Source: Chiloscyllium plagiosum
Taxonomy: Eukaryota
Direction: 5' to 3'
Assembly: GCF_004010195.1 (NCBI RefSeq)
Contig: NC_057714.1
Span: forward strand, 15,676,738-15,740,737
DNA: 64,000 nucleotides
Positions 1-32,805 of the stretch are shown piece after piece. Position 1 is the stretch's first letter. The number at the start of each line of letters is the position of its first letter. A program made the position numbers and the translations under genes. Under the pieces are notes generated by a model. That model was not told the DNA's origin. It saw only the letters and a program-made list of their open reading frames with translations, and searched no databases.

Positions 1-1269
1 TCTTGCCTACTTTGTGCGCCATATAATTTCACTCCACAGGTTTGAACAGATTGTCCACCTAATAAAATGAAACTAATGAAAACAGTACTCACTGCACAGG
101 TTATAAAAATGTTTGCGTTGAAGCAAAACCTATATTTACCAAGTATGTATCAACATAATTCAGGATCCTCAGAACTAGCTGGTATCTTATCACTTCTGTG
201 CACTTGGAAAAATAGCCCCATTAGACAAGAATACTGTCATCTCCTAAAGGGATTATAGATGAAATGCTTTTTTGACCACTTACATTACACAGTTACATTA
301 AGAGTGTTATTCTGCTTTATTGCAACTAACTGTTTGTTTTTCTAGACTAAAGCAGAGAGTTTTCTAGCCATATGACAGACAGTCTCAAATCTGAATGCAG
401 ACTTGCAACAAATAAAAAGTTCATCCTTCAGGTCATAGTACCATGTACACAATGACCTAGTGAACCGGAAATGTCACATGATGGCATTGGAAAGGGTCAA
501 TGTTTGTCCTGTGTGTAAGAGTAATTGCTGAGATGATTTATTGGTTGAGAGCATGCTGTTGCCATTTGAGAGTTTGCAGTCAAGACAAGAAAAAAAGCTC
601 AGGTAACATTTAAAGTTCAAAAAGGCAGGGAACCTTCTCTTGCTAATACTCTCAAATGCACCAAAAAGGAAGATACTCCGTAGAGACTCATAAGAAAGTT
701 TGTGGTAAACTATTAGCATTTGTTATAAGTCTTCATTGTGTATTTTAAGTAAAATTCATCCATATGAATATTTCAAGATACAATTCAAATCAGTTCGCCA
801 ATAGGAAGATTATTCAACTGAGCTGTACAGATCAAGAAAATCATAGTCCCTCCCTTAATCCATGTTGAATTAACTGATCCCAGTCAATTCATCAGTAAAT
901 GCTAAACAAAACAACATATCTTAGGACATAAATGGGACCAGATGAATCTACCTGAGCTCCCACTTTATCATAGAACCATGGAACATAGCACTGAAGGAAG
1001 GAATGTGTATCTGACTAGCTCTTAGAAAAAATAATTCTGCTTAGACATACACCCTTCATTTATAGATATGTATATTCCTCATCCTCCAGCATCATATCTT
1101 TTTACAGTTATTTGTGGAATCAGCTTCCACCATCTTTTCAAGATTCCGACAATTCTCTGATTGCAAAATGTTTTCCTTCATCTCCCCTCTACATTTTTTG
1201 CCAATTACTTTGGTTATCAGCCTAATCACCAGAAAAAAATGTTCTTCTCTATCTACTCATTCAAAACCT

Positions 1270-2030
1270 TCCATTGCCTTAAAAAAAACTCCATTAACCT
1301 TTTCTGTTCTAAGAAGGACTGTCTGATTTTTTCAAACTCTCCTTGTACCTAAAGCCTGACATCCCTGGTAACTACTCTCTCTATGCCTTTTCTAAGGCTT
1401 TCACTTTTTCTGAAGTGCAGTCTCCAGAATTGCCCATCGTCTAAAGCACCTCACATTAAACTTCCCTGCCCTAAAATCTATTTTCTATTCTGAGATCCAT
1501 TTCATCAACCTGTCTGTCATCCTGAAACCTCGAACTTTCCTCATCATACACAAATACTAAGATTTATATAATTTTCAAACGTTATCATTTGCTTCTGGTG
1601 GACTCCAGCCTGACTCTTGTTGAACACCACTGCAAACCACATCCCAGTTGAAAGAACATTCATTCACCACCAACTTTTGATTTCGGCCACTAAGCCAATT
1701 TAGTATCCTTGCTGCCTCTAATTTCCTGAACTTCTATGTTCTTATTCAGTTTCCCTGTCTGGCACTTTGTTAAATCTTCTCCAAAAGTCCATACGTAAAA
1801 TATTTACTACACTATCTTCACGAATCTTCTCTGTTGCATCGTTGTAAGACGTTAATCAAGTTGGCCATGATTTGCCTTCCACAAATCCACACTGGGTCTC
1901 CTTGATTACCGCATGTCTTATAAAATGAAAGTTTATTTTGTCTGTGATGCTGCTTTTCAATAACTTCCCCAGTAACGATGTTAGGTTGATTATTCTGTAA
2001 TTTCCTGGTTTATTTCCTCTTCCTTTTCTT
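1270..2030 (-). mobile_element. Heavily decayed CR1-type LINE RT fragment
   Basis: Patchy similarity to the CR1 RT copies elsewhere in the window (e.g. ggcactttgttaaatcttctccaaaagtccatac, the reverse of the YMDF.K.F.KV region); no intact ORF. Confidence 0.5.
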
Positions 2031-2881
2031 GAATAACAGTACAGTGTTCATGTTATTTGTCCATATCTTTCATGCAGAGCAGTCTACAATGCTTTCATTC
2101 TGCAGAAGTATGTGTTGTCTGCTTTGTTTGACAATGGACAGTTCACAAGCAAATGGTCCTTTGCCAACTAAAGCTAGCCTTTGCCTCCATAACTCCCATG
2201 GGTCCCTCCATCATTATGTGGGGCAGCCATGATGGACCAGCTGCTCTTTCTCTGTCAATCAATTTCCTTTGTTTATGTGCCTCTGGAGTCCCTTCAGTGG
2301 AACTCAGGAACAGTGAGCCCACGCTATCACAAAAACTATGGTGCTACTTGACACTGCTGAAACAATTTGAATGATCAGACTGTTCAGGCTGGGTGTTGTT
2401 TCAAGGACATCTTAGTTCCCAGGATCTGTATCAACTATTTTTTTCTCTTTTGTTCAAAGGTGTGGAGAGGGTTTGCAGCCTAAACACTTTTTCTTTTCTC
2501 TTTTGTCCCTTCCCTTATTATCCCTTCCTCAATTCTATTACATGCTAACTTCAGTGTGATAATGCTGGTGTAGATAATCCAGCCCAATGTGTTGGGAGAT
2601 TGTGAACTCCTAGACCATGAAACCTCACTTGAGATGCACTCGCAAGAAAAATAAAGGATACCTTGTAAAAATACAACTCTGGGACAAGAAAATGCATCGG
2701 ATAATTTGACCATGACAGAGTAGCTTAGCAAATACAGCTTCAGGGAGAGAGCAAAATAGAAAACAACTCCATCTCCTTCCTCAGCAACTGTTCACAGTTC
2801 TACTTTATTCCAGATAGAACTCATCTGAAAATTCACCTATAATGTTTTCGACTTCCAAAATGTTCAGAGGTCTTCCTTCAC

Positions 2882-4165
2882 CATAGAACATAGAACATTA
2901 CAGCATGGTTATGGCCCTTCAGCCCTTGATGTTGCGCTGACCCGTGAAACCAATCCGAAGCCCATCTAACCTATACTATTCCATTTTTGTCCATATGTCT
3001 ATCCCATGACCATTTAAATGCCCTTAAAGTTGGCGAGGCTACTATTGTTGCAGGCAGGGCGTTCCACACCCTTACTACTCTGAGTAAAGAAACTAGCTCT
3101 GACGTCTGTCCTATATCTATCAACTCTCAATTTAAAGCTCTGCCCCCTCGTGCTAGCCATCACTACTCAAGGTAAAAGGCTCTCCCTGTCCACCCTATCT
3201 AACCCTCTGATTATCTTGTATGTCTCAATTAAGTTACCTTTCACCCTTCTTCTCTCCAACAAAAACAGCTTCAAATCAATCAGCCTTTCTTCGTAAGACC
3301 TTCCTTCCACACTAGGCAACATCCTAGTAAATCTCCTCTGAACCATTTCCAAAGCTTCCACATCCTTCCTATAATGCGGTGACCAGAGCTGTATACAATA
3401 CTCCAAGTGCAGCCGCACCGGAGTTTTGTACAGCTGCAGCATGACCTCATGGTTCTGAAACTCAATCTCTCTCCTAATAAAAGCTAACACTCCGTATGCC
3501 TTCTTAACAACCCTATCAACTTGGATGGCAACTTTCAGGGATCCAAGTACATGGACTCTGAGATCTCTCCGTTCATCTACACTACCAAGAATCTTACCAT
3601 GAACCCAGTACTCTGCATTCCCGTTACTCCTTCCAAAGTGAATCACCTCACACTTTTCTACGTTTAACTCCGTTTGCCATCTCTCAGCCCTGCTCTGCAG
3701 TATACCCACGTCCCTCTATAACCTACAACATCCTTCGGCACTATCCACAACTCTACCGACCTTAATGTCATCTGCAAATTTACTAACCCATCCTTCCACG
3801 CCCTCATCCAGGTCATTTATAAAAATGACAAACAGCAGTGGACCCAACTCAGATCCTTGTGGTACACCACTAGTAACAGAACACCAGGATGAACATTTCT
3901 CATCAACCACCACCATCTGTCTTATTTCAGCTAGCCAATTTCTGATCCAAACCACTAAATCATCCTCAATCCTATGCCTCCATACTTTGTGCAATAGCCT
4001 ACCATGGGGAACCTTATCAAACGCCTTACTGAAATCCATATACACCACATCAACTGCTTTATCCTCATCCACCTGTTTGGTCACCTTCTCAAAGAAATCA
4101 GTAAGGTTTGTGAGGCACAACCTACCCTTTACAAAACTGTGTTGACTATCCCTAATCAACTTATT
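2882..4165 (-). mobile_element. 5'-truncated CR1/HER1-like LINE (ORF2 RT C-terminal half + 3' tail)
   Basis: ORFs 3716..4159 ([31 protein letters not shown]) and 3167..3709 (LEYCIQLWSP, VQRRFTRML); catagaacatagaaca tail at 2882-2897. Confidence 0.92.
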
Positions 4166-15708: not shown

Positions 15709-15954
15709 ACCCCCTCCTCCTTAGAGCAGAATGGCCTGGCAGGTGCATGCATGTTTTGATTGTCCCTCCGCTCTGGAATAGTTACTGTCATAAAGAGGTG
15801 GTTTATTTGGTCAGAGACCAAGCATGATAATACCCCCTCCTCCTTAGAGCAGAATGGCCTGGCAGGTGCATGCATGTTTTGATTGTCCCTCTGCTCTGGA
15901 ATAGTTACTGTCATAAAGAGGTGGTTTATTTGGTCAGAGACCAAGCATGATAGT
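15709..15954. repeat. 123 bp tandem duplication (2 copies)
   Basis: 15709-15831 and 15832-15954, about 2 mismatches. Confidence 0.92.
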
Positions 15955-25948: not shown

Positions 25949-26022
25949 CCTCCTTGTGCTATGCTGTCATGGTATTTGTTCACCTCCTCCTTGTGCTATG
26001 CTGTCATGGTATTTGTTCATCT
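25949..26022. repeat. 37 bp tandem duplication
   Basis: cctccttgtgctatgctgtcatggtatttgttca(c/t)ct x2. Confidence 0.9.
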
Positions 26023-28454
26023 CCTATAGACTTTGCTGTTATTCACTCAGACAGCCAGATGTTCACACATGTTAAGGTTGAGTAAAGGTTGAGGCTGCTC
26101 TGACACCACACCTGGGTGGCCACTATCTGGTTGTGTACCTTGCATTCCACCACAGTCTTTCCTTTTGTTATAACAATATCAAAACGTTTGAACCATAAAA
26201 TCTTGGAAACATTCAACAAGACAGGTATCATCTGAGGAGGGAACAGACAGGTTAGATCTTTCAGGTTTAGATTTGCAGGTTTAAATCTTTCATCAGAACT
26301 GGTGCATTATTTTACATTTAGGAAATTGAATTAACAAAATGAGTAGAAAAAAGCAGCATATTGCAAGCAATTTCATGTCGGCATAGTACGTTGAGAAATT
26401 GCTCTCCCAGGTTATGGACTATATTCTAAAAAACATACTTCGTAATTTATTTGTTGCAGTACATAAGTATTGATTGGTGTTGCGAATGACATTTCAGAAA
26501 TAACATTAATGACATTTACACAAGCAGTTGATAGGATACTTCAATGCTTGAACCCACATGTCAATCTCCTAGAATGAGGGCAAAATCTTTAGCACTATAG
26601 CTACAGGACAAAATAAGTGTTTCTTTAAAATATTTTAGCTTTACAGAAATGAGACACCAGTGACATCCATTGTTGTTATCGCCAACAGAAAGAACCTTGT
26701 AAAAATAATGATACTGGATCCAGCTAGAAAAACATGGATAGATACTTGAGAACATTATGTACCATTGTAACTCTTGCAGTTAATTAAATACTGGAAGAAG
26801 GTTAGACAGATGTTCTTTTAATGATGAATTGGTTGTGTCTTTGAAGTTGTATATTTTGAAAACTTTCATTCAGAAACAAAAAAGACAATGATCAGTAAGG
26901 GACCTCTTAATGATATGAAGAATTGAGACATCAGAAATCGGTATTCTCAGTTAATGCTTCCCTTTTTGTTTTTAAAACAAATTGTACTTACGACATAGTC
27001 CAACCTACATAAAATGCTAAGTAGAAATGTATTGGTGGGATAACGTTGTTTTTGCTTTTATAAAAATCCAATTGTTTGAACTTAATAAACTCCTTTCAGT
27101 AGTAATATACCCAGAAAAAAAGAGAGCGGATTGGAAGGATTAGTTCTTGTCTATCTGACTGTTACACAAACATTTCAGTAACTACTGATAGGACTGTCAA
27201 AGGAATGTTTCTGATATGAAAACTCTATTACGGTAGTTTAACCAGGAAATTGTGAAAACAGTCAGAAATACTTATATTTGGTATTGATGTTCTTCACTTG
27301 ATTTTCTACACTTCTAACTTACAAACAATTTGTGCAGTTTATTCAAAAAATCAGGTATGTCTGTGAGAAATGAGGAGGTGTAAAAGTCTTAACTTCAAAT
27401 TAGGCACAATTCCTACAACACAGAGGACATAACATTGGAAGTTGAGGTCCAAGGAACTTCATCAAAACAAATTAGATGAGCTGCAGGAAATTAGGAGCTT
27501 CGATTCATACCGAAGCCCTGTGGCAAGACTGCATCTCGAGGATGGAAGTAAATGGCAGGGGTCAGGGGTCAGCAGCTGGAAGCAGCCTACAACTGTTTGA
27601 AGGAGTCAGAAGAAGCACTCTTTCTAACTTCTCAAATGCTGAAAAACATTAAAATCTTTTGTCCTTTTGAGCTACCTCCTGCTGTTCCTTTATAAACTGT
27701 TAATTTAAGCTGATTAAGAAAAAACAACTGGAGCTTGCATTGACTAAATTCTGTCTAGAGTGAACAAATCTAGGAGTCTGAGTCTGAAGTGAGCTGAAGT
27801 CTGAAATCTCATTCCAATATTGCATAAATGTTCCCGTTTGCTACATTGGTTCTATTGCACACACTTTAGATAGAAAATATGACATGGTCTTTAATTTTAG
27901 ACACCCGGTTCATCCTCAATGAATATCCCCTAAATTTTTGTTTTTGAGGGTTCTTGTTTAAATGAATGTGAAAATTGATTTATATCAAAGACTGTGAAGA
28001 TGCCTGGAATTGTTTTTTTTTCTTAAAAGGTTAGTTAAACGAAACTTAGAACTTCAAAAACAAAAACACTGACTGCAAGAGAAAATTAAGTAAACAACCA
28101 GAGCCTTATAGACTGCAATCTACTAAGAGAGGAGCCACCTACTTATCCTTTCCTACAATTTTGAGAAAGCCCTTTTGGAAATCAGCGTAAATGCTGTAAA
28201 ATGGATGGATCAATTCTCCCAAGGAGCCTTTGATATGTCCTAAATAAATTGCTTCTGAAAATATCTTTGTGTCAACCGCCAGTATGTGGTAAACCTATCT
28301 GTCTGTATTACCAGATAGGACACCGGACCAAAAGCCATCTGGACTGGTTTATACTTGTAGTAATCAGAACCAGATGGATCTTATTGACGACATGGTCCTT
28401 GATTGGCCCAGGTTAACACTCCCAATCAGGAAGCCCTAGCCAACAAAAAAAAAA

Positions 28455-29003
28455 CAGGGGATGGGAGGGACGGGGGCTTGCTGGGTCTGTATTGTATGCA
28501 CTGTTTCTTTATGTAACTGGATTGTCTTACGTATAAAGGCCATTGTTGCTGTCTTTTTATATTTGAAACTGGGATTTGTGGTTTGTCCTCAATTCCCTGT
28601 AAACTGGTTGAACGGTAGGGTTTGGGGCCTAGCTTTGCTGTTCCTCTCCCTTGTAAAATTAACATATACAGCTGTAAATGTTAATTGTTTTTTGTAAATT
28701 GTTTTGTAATTTGTTTAATAAAATAAAAACAGGGGATGGCGGCTTGCTGGGTCTGTATTGTATGCACTGTTTCTTTATGTAACTGGATTGGTCTTTTATG
28801 TATAAGTGTCATTGTCACTGTCTTTTATGTGGAACTGGGATTTGAGGTTTGTCCTCATCTCCCTGTAAACTGGTTGAATGGTAGGGTTTGGAGCCTGGCT
28901 TTACTGCTCCTCTCCCTTGTAAAATTGCTGTTGTATACAGCTGTAAATGTTAACTGTTTGTTGTAAACTATTTTGTAATTTTGAAATAAAACTTTAAAAA
29001 AAA
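28455..29003 (+). mobile_element. Two tandem ~275 bp poly(A)-tailed retroelement 3' ends (Tx1/L1-like 3' UTR)
   Basis: Copies at ~28455-28729 and ~28730-29003, each beginning caggggat and ending AATAAA + A-run. Confidence 0.6.
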
Positions 29004-29200
29004 CAGGGGATTTAGGATCTCCTCAGTTTAGGAGACTGACTGTGAGCTGGCCAGCCACAGAGAATAAAAAAAAAAACAGGCAATGAGAATCTCCTCAATT
29101 TAGGGTCTGATTCTGAGCTACCTGGCCACAGGGGAAAAAAAATGTTAAACTGGGAGATTAAGGATCTCCTCAATTCAGGAGACTGACTCTGAGCTGGCTG
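29004..29200 (+). repeat. Three diverged ~65-75 bp LTR-derived units separated by A-runs
   Basis: ggatctcctca.tt.agg...ctga.t.tgagct unit at ~29004, ~29077 and ~29150. Confidence 0.75.
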
Positions 29201-31325
29201 GCTATAGCCAATATATTATGTACAAGTAAATAATGAATAGCTTAATAATGGGATATTAGCCTCTGCACAGTTAGTTCAATATCTTGCCCTTTTTCTTTCT
29301 TTAAGATTTAACAGTTATTTAGCCAAAGATTTTATTTTAAAATGTTGGAGATGCATCTTACCAGAAATCTGTTTAGTGTCAATTTTGGTGAGTTTCTTGC
29401 AGGGCTTCTCTTCACCAGACTAGTGAGTTTTCTTGTGCTATCTACCCAAATTCAATGGATTATTATTCACCACCATTCCATTGTGCCCTGCTCATCCCAT
29501 TCTCTCACACACGAGGCAGAAGTATTCTCCACTGCTGGCACTGGTGTTGTATTTAAAGTCCAGCAGTGCACCCAGTCAAGCTCTGGTATTCCACAGCTGC
29601 TATACATGGTTCCCAACAATTGTCCCAGCTATATAGGTCAGAGAGTAATTGACACCCCACTTTGCTCAAGGAGCCTGAAGGTGCTGGTAGATACAGAATG
29701 CATGTGGTCATTGCCCCGAGACATGACCTGAGATGTTGGTAACTAGTGTCCAAGATAAGGTTTGGTGGAGCAAGTGGTGATCTGAGAGAATGAGAAAATG
29801 TATATCAATGAGATGACATAACAAAGAGGAATCATGCAATTAAAACATGCAGTCATCCTCCTTGCTCTTCATTGACAACAACCTCATCTCGTCATTAAAC
29901 ACTTGGTTAGTAAATGGAACGTTTTGCTCTCAGTCTCAGGAAACTCACATGATTTTCCCTACTTTTCACCATTGTATTTAGGAAAGACCTGTCCTTGAAG
30001 TGCACAGAAGAAGTATTTCTGTGCTGAATTTTCCTAATATCTGAATAATATGGTCAATAGCAAGAAAATGGTAAAAATATGGTCAGAATGAAACAATAAG
30101 ATTTGCAACTTTGGGGAAAAGATATCCAAGTTTCCTCTAAGGTTTCGACAACTAGGTGAGAACTTTGCTCGTGAGTTGTGAGGGGGCCTATTTGCATGCA
30201 CTGTCTCACAATCATTTAATCTCATCTTCTTTATCTATAGTTTGCTATTCTTTCAATTACTGGCATGAACTTAGATGGCACCAATTTTTGGTGGCTGCAG
30301 CTTGCCAGTGTATTCTTCATGCAACTGCCTTGGGCAGCACTCATTAACATCTAAGTACATGCTCCGTGGGCAGCGACAGCCTGCACCTTCTGCCCTAACA
30401 AGGTGACATCAGCAAAGCAGCCTCACCATGTCAGACTGACTTATAATATAGTTCAGCACTTCACTGCTGAAATGTGGAGTTCCCCAATACTTTACTTTGC
30501 AAAACTGACATCAGGTTGCTTTGCCTGCAGAGACAGGAACCCAACTCATGCGACAGAACAAGGTGCACTCAGGGCTCTTATTTCATTTCTTAGCACTCAC
30601 ATTATACTTACTTTGATGGTCATAGTATCTTTGCTTTACCTCATCTTTTAGTGCACCCACGCTCTATTCAGAATTAGCAGACTCGCAGTAGTTCTCGCTT
30701 GCTTTTCCTTTAGCACAGACAGAAATTGAGGAAGCTTACTCGTTTGCCAACAAGGGGGTGGACATGTTGCTGCGGGGCACCATGCTATAGCATGTACCAG
30801 CAGGTTACATGGCTAACACACTGAATGTTCTTCAACCAAATGACCATGTCTAAGAGGAGTGTTTTTTTTTCCCAATCAAAGGGAACAGGGTCAGTCAAAG
30901 GAAACTGGCAGTCATTTAAGGCCACTGTCAATCCAGGGGCATGTCCAAGAGCACTCGGAAACTTAGTGCAACTAGGCTCTGGGAATCTGTGTCCTTACAT
31001 TCCGGGGATAGGGTCACAATCCATCCAGAAGTCAAGACTGACCGGTTCAGAGATCACTGGTAATTCAGTTGGAAACTGCACAGTGATCATTCTGGGCTCT
31101 AGTCTGTGCTCAGGCAGGACTGTGCCCCAAGGTAGTCAAGGGTGATGGGGTAAATTTGAGGGATTTACACACTAATCATCAAAGGGGGATATCAGGAGCC
31201 ACACTCTATTGGGGAAGTCTAGTATGGGAATTGGAAGCAGCATGCTAGGATACTGATGGGACAACAGTGTGAAAGGGGCAGATGGGCAACTCTTACAAGT
31301 AAAGGTCTATAGATGATAGTGAAAA

Positions 31326-32155
31326 TGAAATAACTCCACAGAAGGTGGTATCTTGTCACCAAGTTACCCTTCATGCACATGTGGAGAGTCCTTGACACTG
31401 ATCCAACTCCTTCAGAACCAGCTCTCAGAGTGATCGCTATGCTTGGCACACCTATTCTTTTTTTATTTTCATTTTTTTTCCTTTTTTGTGTGTGCAGGTG
31501 TGAGACACAGTAAAGGACACAAGATGTACAAATCTTTATTCAATTTCCACCACTAGGAAGAAAAAAACACCCAAGTGGTCAGTGACAAACAATGCCCTTC
31601 ACAACAAAGGACAATGCTGCATGACACTCCTATAGTTTTTTTTTCTTTTTTTCTTTTTTTTTTCTTACTCACACTGATCCAACTCTCAAAAGGGAAAACA
31701 CCCAGTGGTCAGTGACAAACAATGCCCTTCACATCAAAGGACAATGCTGCATGACACTCCTATAGTTTTTTTTTCTTTTTTTCTTTTTTTTTCTTACTCA
31801 CACTGATCCAACTCTCAAAAGGGAAAACACCCGAGTGGCCAGTGACAAGCAGTGACACTCAAGTTTATTTATTTTTTCCTTTTTCTTTCTTTTTTAATTT
31901 TTTTTTTGTTTTATTAAACGACACTTCTATAGTTATCTGTCAGTCAGGGCTCCCTGATTGGACCAGATTAACAGTTCCAATCAGGGAAGTCATAGAGTCA
32001 TAGAGATGTATAGCATGGAAACAGACTCTTCGGTCCAACCCATCCATGCTGACCAGATATCCCAACCCAATCTAGTCCTACCTGCCAGCCCCTGGCCCAT
32101 ATCCCTCCTCGTATTCTTCATTATCCATTTGGCTGGCCACATTACAATCACTACA
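31326..32155 (-). mobile_element. Solo LTR related to 28356-29278, interrupted by poly(A) inserts and a CR1 tail (31989-32105)
   Basis: Reverse complement starts tgtagtgattg, contains ctgattgg...ccaatcagggagccct, ends gagttatttca. Confidence 0.65.
31457..31919 (-). mobile_element. Stack of short poly(A)-tailed Tx1-like 3' ends with a repeated target motif
   Basis: Four T-rich tracts on plus (~31457, 31636, 31766, 31863); gacactc(ctatag)-type motif at 31623, 31753, 31854 and 31920; shared core aaaacaccc.agtgg.cagtgacaa; the Tx1 assignment is from recall, not a search. Confidence 0.6.
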
Positions 32156-32699: not shown

Positions 32700-32805
32700 C
32701 ACTTTTTGTGGTAGTATCGCTACTTCTGTGCAAGGAGGCCCAGGTTCGACTCCCAGCCACTCTAAGGACGTGTAGTAACATCTTGAACAGGTTGTTTAGA
32801 AAATG
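32700..32805 (+). mobile_element. Short tRNA-derived SINE
   Basis: gtggtagt (box A-like) ... ggttcgactcc (box B), then a non-tRNA body. Confidence 0.55.

Follow-up and report, generated by a model that had tools for sequence, protein, structure and literature searches.

The window analysed here, a stretch of 64,000 nucleotides from Chiloscyllium plagiosum (contig NC_057714.1, positions 15676738-15740737), contains two putative solo long terminal repeats (LTRs), each broken at one TATA-proximal site by A-tailed inserts. Searches of the 3.56-Gb genome trace the main inserts to a Tx1-clade long interspersed nuclear element (LINE), termed family B, and to a non-coding passenger, termed family A. 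An original prediction, made from the letters of the window alone, had described TG..CA ends and paired CCAAT boxes in both LTRs, a common break site and a target motif recurring behind each tail. These features are present, and to a degree well past chance: the breaks lie 19-20 nt past the same U3 anchor, and the motif is seen at three positions in each LTR.

LTR1 lies on the forward strand, from its TG at 28356 to its CA at 29278, and belongs to subfamily 2 of the Gypsy-type LTRs. Its 5′ part (28356-28462) comprises U3, a reversed and a forward CCAAT box at 28400 and 28422, an A-rich decayed TATA region and the first target copy (28449-28462). Two 5′-truncated, A-tailed copies of family A follow at 28463-28723 and 28738-28997, the second matching the first in 209/234 letters, and each is trailed by a copy of the target-site duplication (28724-28737 and 28998-29011). 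The next segment (29012-29143) is made of 72-bp units and holds two A-tailed copies of the ~60 nt that directly follow the TATA, either an LTR R piece or the head of family A; a further target copy (29071-29084) separates the two. The 3′ remainder (29144-29278) carries the oldest target copy, an initiator (Inr)-like element, R-U5 and the CA end. The recurring motif, caggggat, starts at 28455, 28730 and 29004. A-tailed inserts thus occupy the site as predicted, but the first A-run of LTR1 (28445-28454) is not a tail: it belongs to the decayed TATA region, where the length equals that of empty LTRs.

LTR2, of subfamily 1, lies on the reverse strand from its TG at 32155 to its CA at 31326, and all its parts are read in that direction. 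The 5′ part (31920-32155) contains U3, a reversed and a forward CCAAT box at 31983 and 31961, and the first target copy (31920-31933). It is split by the 3′ end of a LINE (31988-32110) that sits inside U3, off the target site, and serves as an internal control; we take this piece to be of CR1 type, and CR1-like coding sequence is observed upstream of it at other loci. Next comes a probable single read-through insertion (31767-31919), made of a family A 3′ stub, an A-run, a foreign target copy and an A-tailed 5′ leader piece of a LINE variant, B2 (31767-31853), in which a piece of the element's own 3′ untranslated region (UTR) is fused to an LTR-derived head. It is followed by a target copy, a 130-bp tandem duplication unit and another target copy (31623-31766), by a family B 3′ UTR piece with its A-tail (31458-31622), and by the 3′ remainder with the oldest target copy, R-U5 and the CA end (31326-31457). 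The motif ctata(g/a)gagtgtc recurs at 31920, 31753 and 31623. The two 130-bp units do not represent two hits. The middle unit combines the 5′ private changes of its 3′ neighbour with the broken-up A-tail found in its 5′ neighbour, and because it is a chimera of both it is a DNA duplication, which leaves LTR2 with about two insertion events and one tandem duplication. The main inserts of the two LTRs differ as predicted (A versus B), but LTR2 also holds a stub of the family found in LTR1. A-tails broken regularly by G or T, as at 31637-31662 of the window, are seen in many stacks.

The two LTRs had been called related. Both are Gypsy-type LTRs of ~236 bp with the same break site, but their alignment (31/46 and 75/130 letters identical) places them in separate subfamilies. 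Their own 5-bp flanks agree at just 3/5 (LTR1) and 2/5 (LTR2) letters, and no Gypsy coding match was found across the window. They are putatively solo because the window is free of Gypsy coding sequence, not because of flank duplication. Elsewhere, an LTR-internal-LTR arrangement is seen at loci L103 and L104, where protease-like, reverse transcriptase (RT)-like, RNase H and integrase-like pieces follow one another as in Gypsy elements. Within this internal region the RT_RNaseH match is firm (E 3e-25) and the best PDB hit is Ty3 Gag-Pol; the protease is weak, and the integrase, placed after RT, is just a weak lead (score 0.85). These features assign the target to the Ty3/Gypsy LTR retrotransposons with TG..CA repeats. 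In the sequence view, an element that we take to be Inr-like lies 29 nt past the first T of the TATA. At L140:1581-1583, 57/329 RNA reads finish in A-runs 17-19 nt past the LTR AATAAA, and genomic A-tailed LTR pieces end at the same point at L020 and L091. The read ends at L140 are compatible with a poly(A) site; genomic A-tailed copies may also be their source.

Empty copies of the LTR, ~236 bp long, are frequent. Searches with the 3′ halves of the two LTRs returned 2455 (LTR2) and 706 (LTR1) first-look candidates, and here as below the copies examined are the best 30 of the 700-3400 candidates per search, which is a non-random sample. Among 29 other LTR2-type copies, two of which lack the 5′ part, 5/27 have an insert at the site and 22/27 are empty. 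Among 29 LTR1-type copies, scored by eye over 155 upstream bases and with two uninformative, 16/27 have an insert and 11/27 are empty. Thirteen of the 16 occupied LTR1-type sites hold members of family A or B, LTR pieces or plain A-runs, and three hold a short interspersed nuclear element (SINE). Since empty copies are so common, the inserts are not LTR parts, and the concern that they might be a normal internal part of the LTR consensus can be set aside.

The flanks behind the poly(A) tails are not random either. Allowing one mismatch at most, the target motif AAACAGGAG stands behind the tail in 19/28 copies of A and 14/29 of B (counted without the locus of the window and a duplicate), compared with an expectation of 0.25 (A) and 1.7 (B) from shuffled flanks, or 0.8% and 2.5% in random DNA. 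Behind control tails it occurs in 1/29 CR1-type and 2/29 SINE copies. Because an RNA may carry the motif along with it, the LTR halves around the stacks were scored as well. By eye, family A resides in the LTR site in 20/28 cases, with five outside and three undecided, and family B in 15/29, with 14 outside; the CR1-type end does so in 0/29 and the A-tailed SINE in 0/28 (one locus without an anchor was dropped). LTR-site targeting is thus strong, yet leaky. According to the text of PMC4494074, a Tx1 family counts as target-specific when >20% of its flanks are of one sequence type, a share exceeded here by both B (15/29) and A (20/28) in these best-hit samples.

The break point is equally consistent. 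In 241 merged loci, mostly retrieved through A or B, 69 U3 anchors are found: 21 are followed by R-like sequence, six are further empty LTRs that had escaped that pattern, two are false and 40 belong to broken LTRs. Of the last group, 39/40 are interrupted 14-21 nt past the one anchor by inserts in the LTR direction. The target duplications, ~14 bp long and starting at the first A of TATAAA, repeat private changes of each host LTR, so the insertions happened in place. Two off-target insertions, at L019 and L069, lie within or next to a common, presumably Penelope-like repeat that bears the motif TATAACCTGG.

Family B is represented in LTR2 by the 3′ UTR of a LINE with an apurinic/apyrimidinic (APE) endonuclease and RT, for which 1413 candidates were found. 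Coding sequence lies upstream, and stepwise 5′ extension leads to near-full copies of ~7 kb, all broken. They encode a CCHC-bearing open reading frame 1 (ORF1) and an ORF2 with an N-terminal APE endonuclease (PF03372, E 3.8e-14) and RT (PF00078, E 7e-36; ORF pieces of L091/L092). The best named full-length match among those listed is Xenopus Tx1L ORF2, with 61% over 424 aa. In an unrooted RT tree of 18 rows, 17 of them chosen by name from 120 listed hits and none from L1, B falls on the side of Tx1L, of the turtle and sturgeon proteins and of one unnamed row, set apart from 12 others by a 100/100 split; a tree with a CR1 outgroup, which has a long branch, left the position of B unresolved. The ORF1/ORF2 domains, the grouping with Tx1L, the A-tail, the 5′ truncation and the duplication together identify B as a Tx1-clade non-LTR retrotransposon. 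It forms one autonomous lineage with at least two 5′ variants. In variant B2 the target and part of the Inr are lost, and the leader begins with a piece of the element's own 3′ end, to which an LTR-derived head is joined. B2 was seen at L092, L186/L091, L180 and L050, besides the window piece.

The extension to an APE-RT element and its placement on an RT tree, which the original prediction had envisaged for both inserts, succeeded for the LTR2 insert only. The LTR1 insert is family A (2327 candidates), non-coding, with full units of ~1.7 kb in head-to-tail arrays, and five full units gave no tblastn hit to Tx1 coding sequence below E 0.08. The proposal of two or more Tx1-like families is thus not borne out: there is one autonomous lineage and one passenger without a Tx1 coding match. 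Family A was considered as an autonomous Tx1 element or second LINE, which the lack of ORF1/ORF2 remains rules out, and as a classical SINE, which is ruled out by its ~1.7 kb length, its LTR-matching head and the fact that Rfam matches nothing in the unit. That B moves A is suggested by the sites they share, by mixed stacks and by duplications of equal length; B is the mobiliser only by inference, as A has no tail in common with it. A variant of A with a doubled head and a captured CCAAT-TATA core of the LTR occurs at L030/L108 and L102.

The 5′ ends of both families are copied from the target. At 29 loci beside the query, B begins with the ~60 bases that follow the TATA of the subfamily 1 LTR; A begins with the corresponding ~60 bases of subfamily 2. 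In many cases the B head is a short 5′ piece with an A-tail. The head adjoins U3 seamlessly in L141, L146 and L016. In L016 a subfamily-2-type A head is joined without a seam to a subfamily-1 LTR, and since the head type differs from that of the host LTR, the head came with the element. Constant renewal of heads from the LTR at hand is ruled out by L016 and L146, with L156 a possible exception. No ribozyme or structured RNA was found in the heads, and Rfam has no match in the A unit or B head. Behind the tails of 8/14 off-target B copies lies the target plus LTR or head sequence, and their sources therefore lay within LTRs or arrays and gave read-through transcripts. Such read-through pieces and the LTR-derived heads suggest that B likely uses the LTR promoter for its transcription. 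RNA read depth on B tails was left out of account, as priming on genomic A-runs can produce it.

The stacks also preserve an order of events. Neighbouring copies are ~90% alike, exceeding 97% in just 2/70 pairs. In 25-27/36 stacks on the merged loci, the promoter-side (5′-most) B copy has closer relatives elsewhere and is thus younger (sign test p 0.004-0.03; Wilcoxon p 0.003-0.004). Neighbours often share the same 5′ start, in 23/56 B pairs (12/26 loci) and 8/14 A pairs, versus 85/5229 (1.6%) and 11/527 (2.1%) for B and A across loci. At L175, six B copies start alike but differ in bodies and tails. Duplication accounts for a minority of units, the middle unit of LTR2 included. Most simply, new copies would enter the target copy beside U3, and the cut top strand would pair with the new cDNA at points where the latter matches the resident sequence.

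It is quite probable that family B places itself, passenger A and occasional other A-tailed RNAs preferentially within the TATA-like box of this short Gypsy-type LTR, with target-primed reverse transcription from its own nick as the likely route, and that it likely uses the LTR promoter. The B endonuclease would nick inside the TATA-like box, the site being chosen by this enzyme and not by the RNA, and target-primed reverse transcription would follow. Each new copy would take the target copy adjoining U3, and the cut top strand may pair with the new cDNA where matching sequence lies behind the target. Such pairing would yield neighbours with the same 5′ start and full-length heads joined seamlessly, with promoter and head in register. 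Transcripts would begin in the LTR and continue through the stack; the stacks are built from different source copies, and read-through target pieces lie behind their tails. About as likely as not is a bolder version, promoter piracy, in which a promoterless LINE cuts the Gypsy LTR TATA and always sits immediately behind U3, its LTR-copied head of ~60 bases rebuilding the promoter-head junction by homology-guided joining. The 1.7-kb non-coding element would do likewise, and the dated stacks would record the joining.

Several observations weigh against this account. The original idea that a Tx1-clade LINE targets the LTR promoter region holds genome-wide and in LTR orientation, but the 14/29 B copies outside LTRs make it leaky. 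Off-target duplications of 12-16 bp have only an A-rich start in common, and stacks with one repeated duplication occur at the non-LTR sites L038, L050 and L071. The promoter-side A copy is younger in 9/15 stacks, which is not significant, and some same-start pairs are duplications or have ~60 nt of common private changes (LTR2 of the window, L101). As to transcription, reads from a single-cell run do not accumulate at any 5′ start on either a stack or an empty LTR, and the 5′ ends of the heads are scattered (positions ~11, 16, 27 and 31-32, versus the Inr-like A at 34). No intact B copy was found among the copies recovered, and five full A units share no tail with B.

An improbable alternative is that the site is set by the RNA, a read-through transcript with a 3′ target copy pairing with the nicked strand. 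Many tails are indeed followed by target, LTR piece and a second A-tail, and several A copies have ATAAACAGG just before the A-run. Yet 8/14 off-target B copies bear read-through pieces and landed elsewhere. At L023:916-1435, moreover, a duplication-flanked piece of 520 bp sits in the LTR target; its one parent elsewhere (L172, 98%) is the 3′ UTR behind the last cyclin C exons. This mRNA piece lacks LTR sequence, which argues, from one case, that a protein and not RNA pairing finds the site. An unrelated SINE at the site in 3/27 LTRs points the same way.

That the insertion machinery is instead tethered to the RNA polymerase II start complex (TBP/TFIID) at TATA boxes, with sequence playing a minor part, is hardly likely. 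TFIIIB/C guides Ty3 and TRE elements, the break falls inside TATAAA, and all LTR-resident inserts examined run in the LTR direction. A strand-specific nick suffices for that orientation, however; decayed LTRs with a mutated TATA were hit repeatedly (LTR1 and LTR2 of the window), and the off-target sites lie in decayed repeats that start A-rich and do not resemble promoters. Very doubtful, too, is the absence of any special targeting, with an ordinary L1-type T/A preference meeting a very common TATA-like sequence. The A-rich starts of off-target duplications fit such a preference, and the putative bottom-strand nick, TTTAT/AT, resembles the L1 consensus TTTT/AA (PMC1950540), but the A-tailed SINE, with thousands of candidates, and the CR1-type LINE are in the site in 0/28 and 0/29 cases versus 52-71% for B and A. 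The spread of a few inserts by the Gypsy element, with stacks grown by unequal crossover, is largely refuted: the 130-bp unit of LTR2 is such a duplication and same 5′ starts are common, but 22/27 and 11/27 LTRs are empty, 5′ starts vary among loci (1.6% cross-locus matches), the duplications carry local private changes, and the six same-start copies of L175 differ in bodies and tails.

Targeting of one transposon by another has precedents. Kojima 2015 (PMC4494074) reports in its main text that the crocodilian Tx1-8_Crp and Tx1-4_AMi prefer LTR retrotransposons, as B does, and mentions non-coding partners that share the target of a Tx1 element, as well as the possibility that transcription comes from the transposon alongside. 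The heads of these two elements are described there as U1/U2 small nuclear RNA (snRNA)-derived, whereas those of B and A are copied from the target, and that main text gives no position within the LTR, age order or shared 5′ starts, though its figures S3-S4 may give the site. The single alligator protein in the RT tree falls outside B's group and is not necessarily either element. The closest named protein, Tx1L of Xenopus laevis (YTX2_XENLA), matches B along the whole of ORF2. Its sequence-specific endonuclease and insertion into another transposon are documented in PMC1950540. Tx1L targets the DNA transposon Tx1D and is described as stringent; B instead has an LTR promoter as target and is leaky. 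R2 and R1 (28S rDNA) and Keno (U2 snRNA genes), like B, insert in a transcribed multicopy target, but theirs are host RNA genes. R2 combines a restriction-like endonuclease with a ribozyme, whereas no Rfam match marks the A unit or B head. As summarised in PMC4494074, R2 depends on co-transcription from its target. The HeT-A elements of Drosophila form head-to-tail telomeric arrays in which their transcription comes from upstream sequence and they contain 5′ pieces of the adjacent element, a feature shared by variant B2. HeT-A differs in belonging to another clade, targeting chromosome ends and having the promoter in its own 3′ UTR.

The original prediction had regarded such a parasite-of-a-parasite relationship as apparently undescribed in sharks. 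No shark report of Tx1 targeting of this kind was found in the literature searched, which did not cover Repbase and subscription journals; the LTR-retrotransposon case itself is already in print for Tx1-8_Crp and Tx1-4_AMi (PMC4494074). That Tx1 elements target transposons, among them LTR elements, is thus on record, and the copies here look old. Not found in print were the putative LTR-TATA nick, target-derived heads in a LINE and its passenger, the promoter-side order and the shared 5′ joints. The system is a clear example, in a vertebrate, of a transposon that likely exploits the promoter of another, and such promoter use, if true, would answer for one Tx1 lineage the question posed in PMC4494074 of how elements and partners are transcribed. 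In the stacks, nature has recorded many times over how an L1-related enzyme joins 5′ ends, a step that is poorly understood, and in what order copies were inserted. Work on site-directed LINEs may also profit from an APE endonuclease that has a defined 14-bp stagger and whose target is dispensable.

The SINE found at the LTR site in 3/27 LTRs (L222, L234 and L238) belongs to a dispersed, A-tailed, SINE-like family of ~115 nt with 3395 candidates, one of which lies in the window at 32708-32803 (+); its look is presumably tRNA-like. It is not a third targeted family, as 0/28 of its own best copies are in the site. No tRNA genes were found in the window. Recent tandem duplications are present at 15709-15952 (123 bp, 99%) and 25949-26025 (37 bp, 97%).

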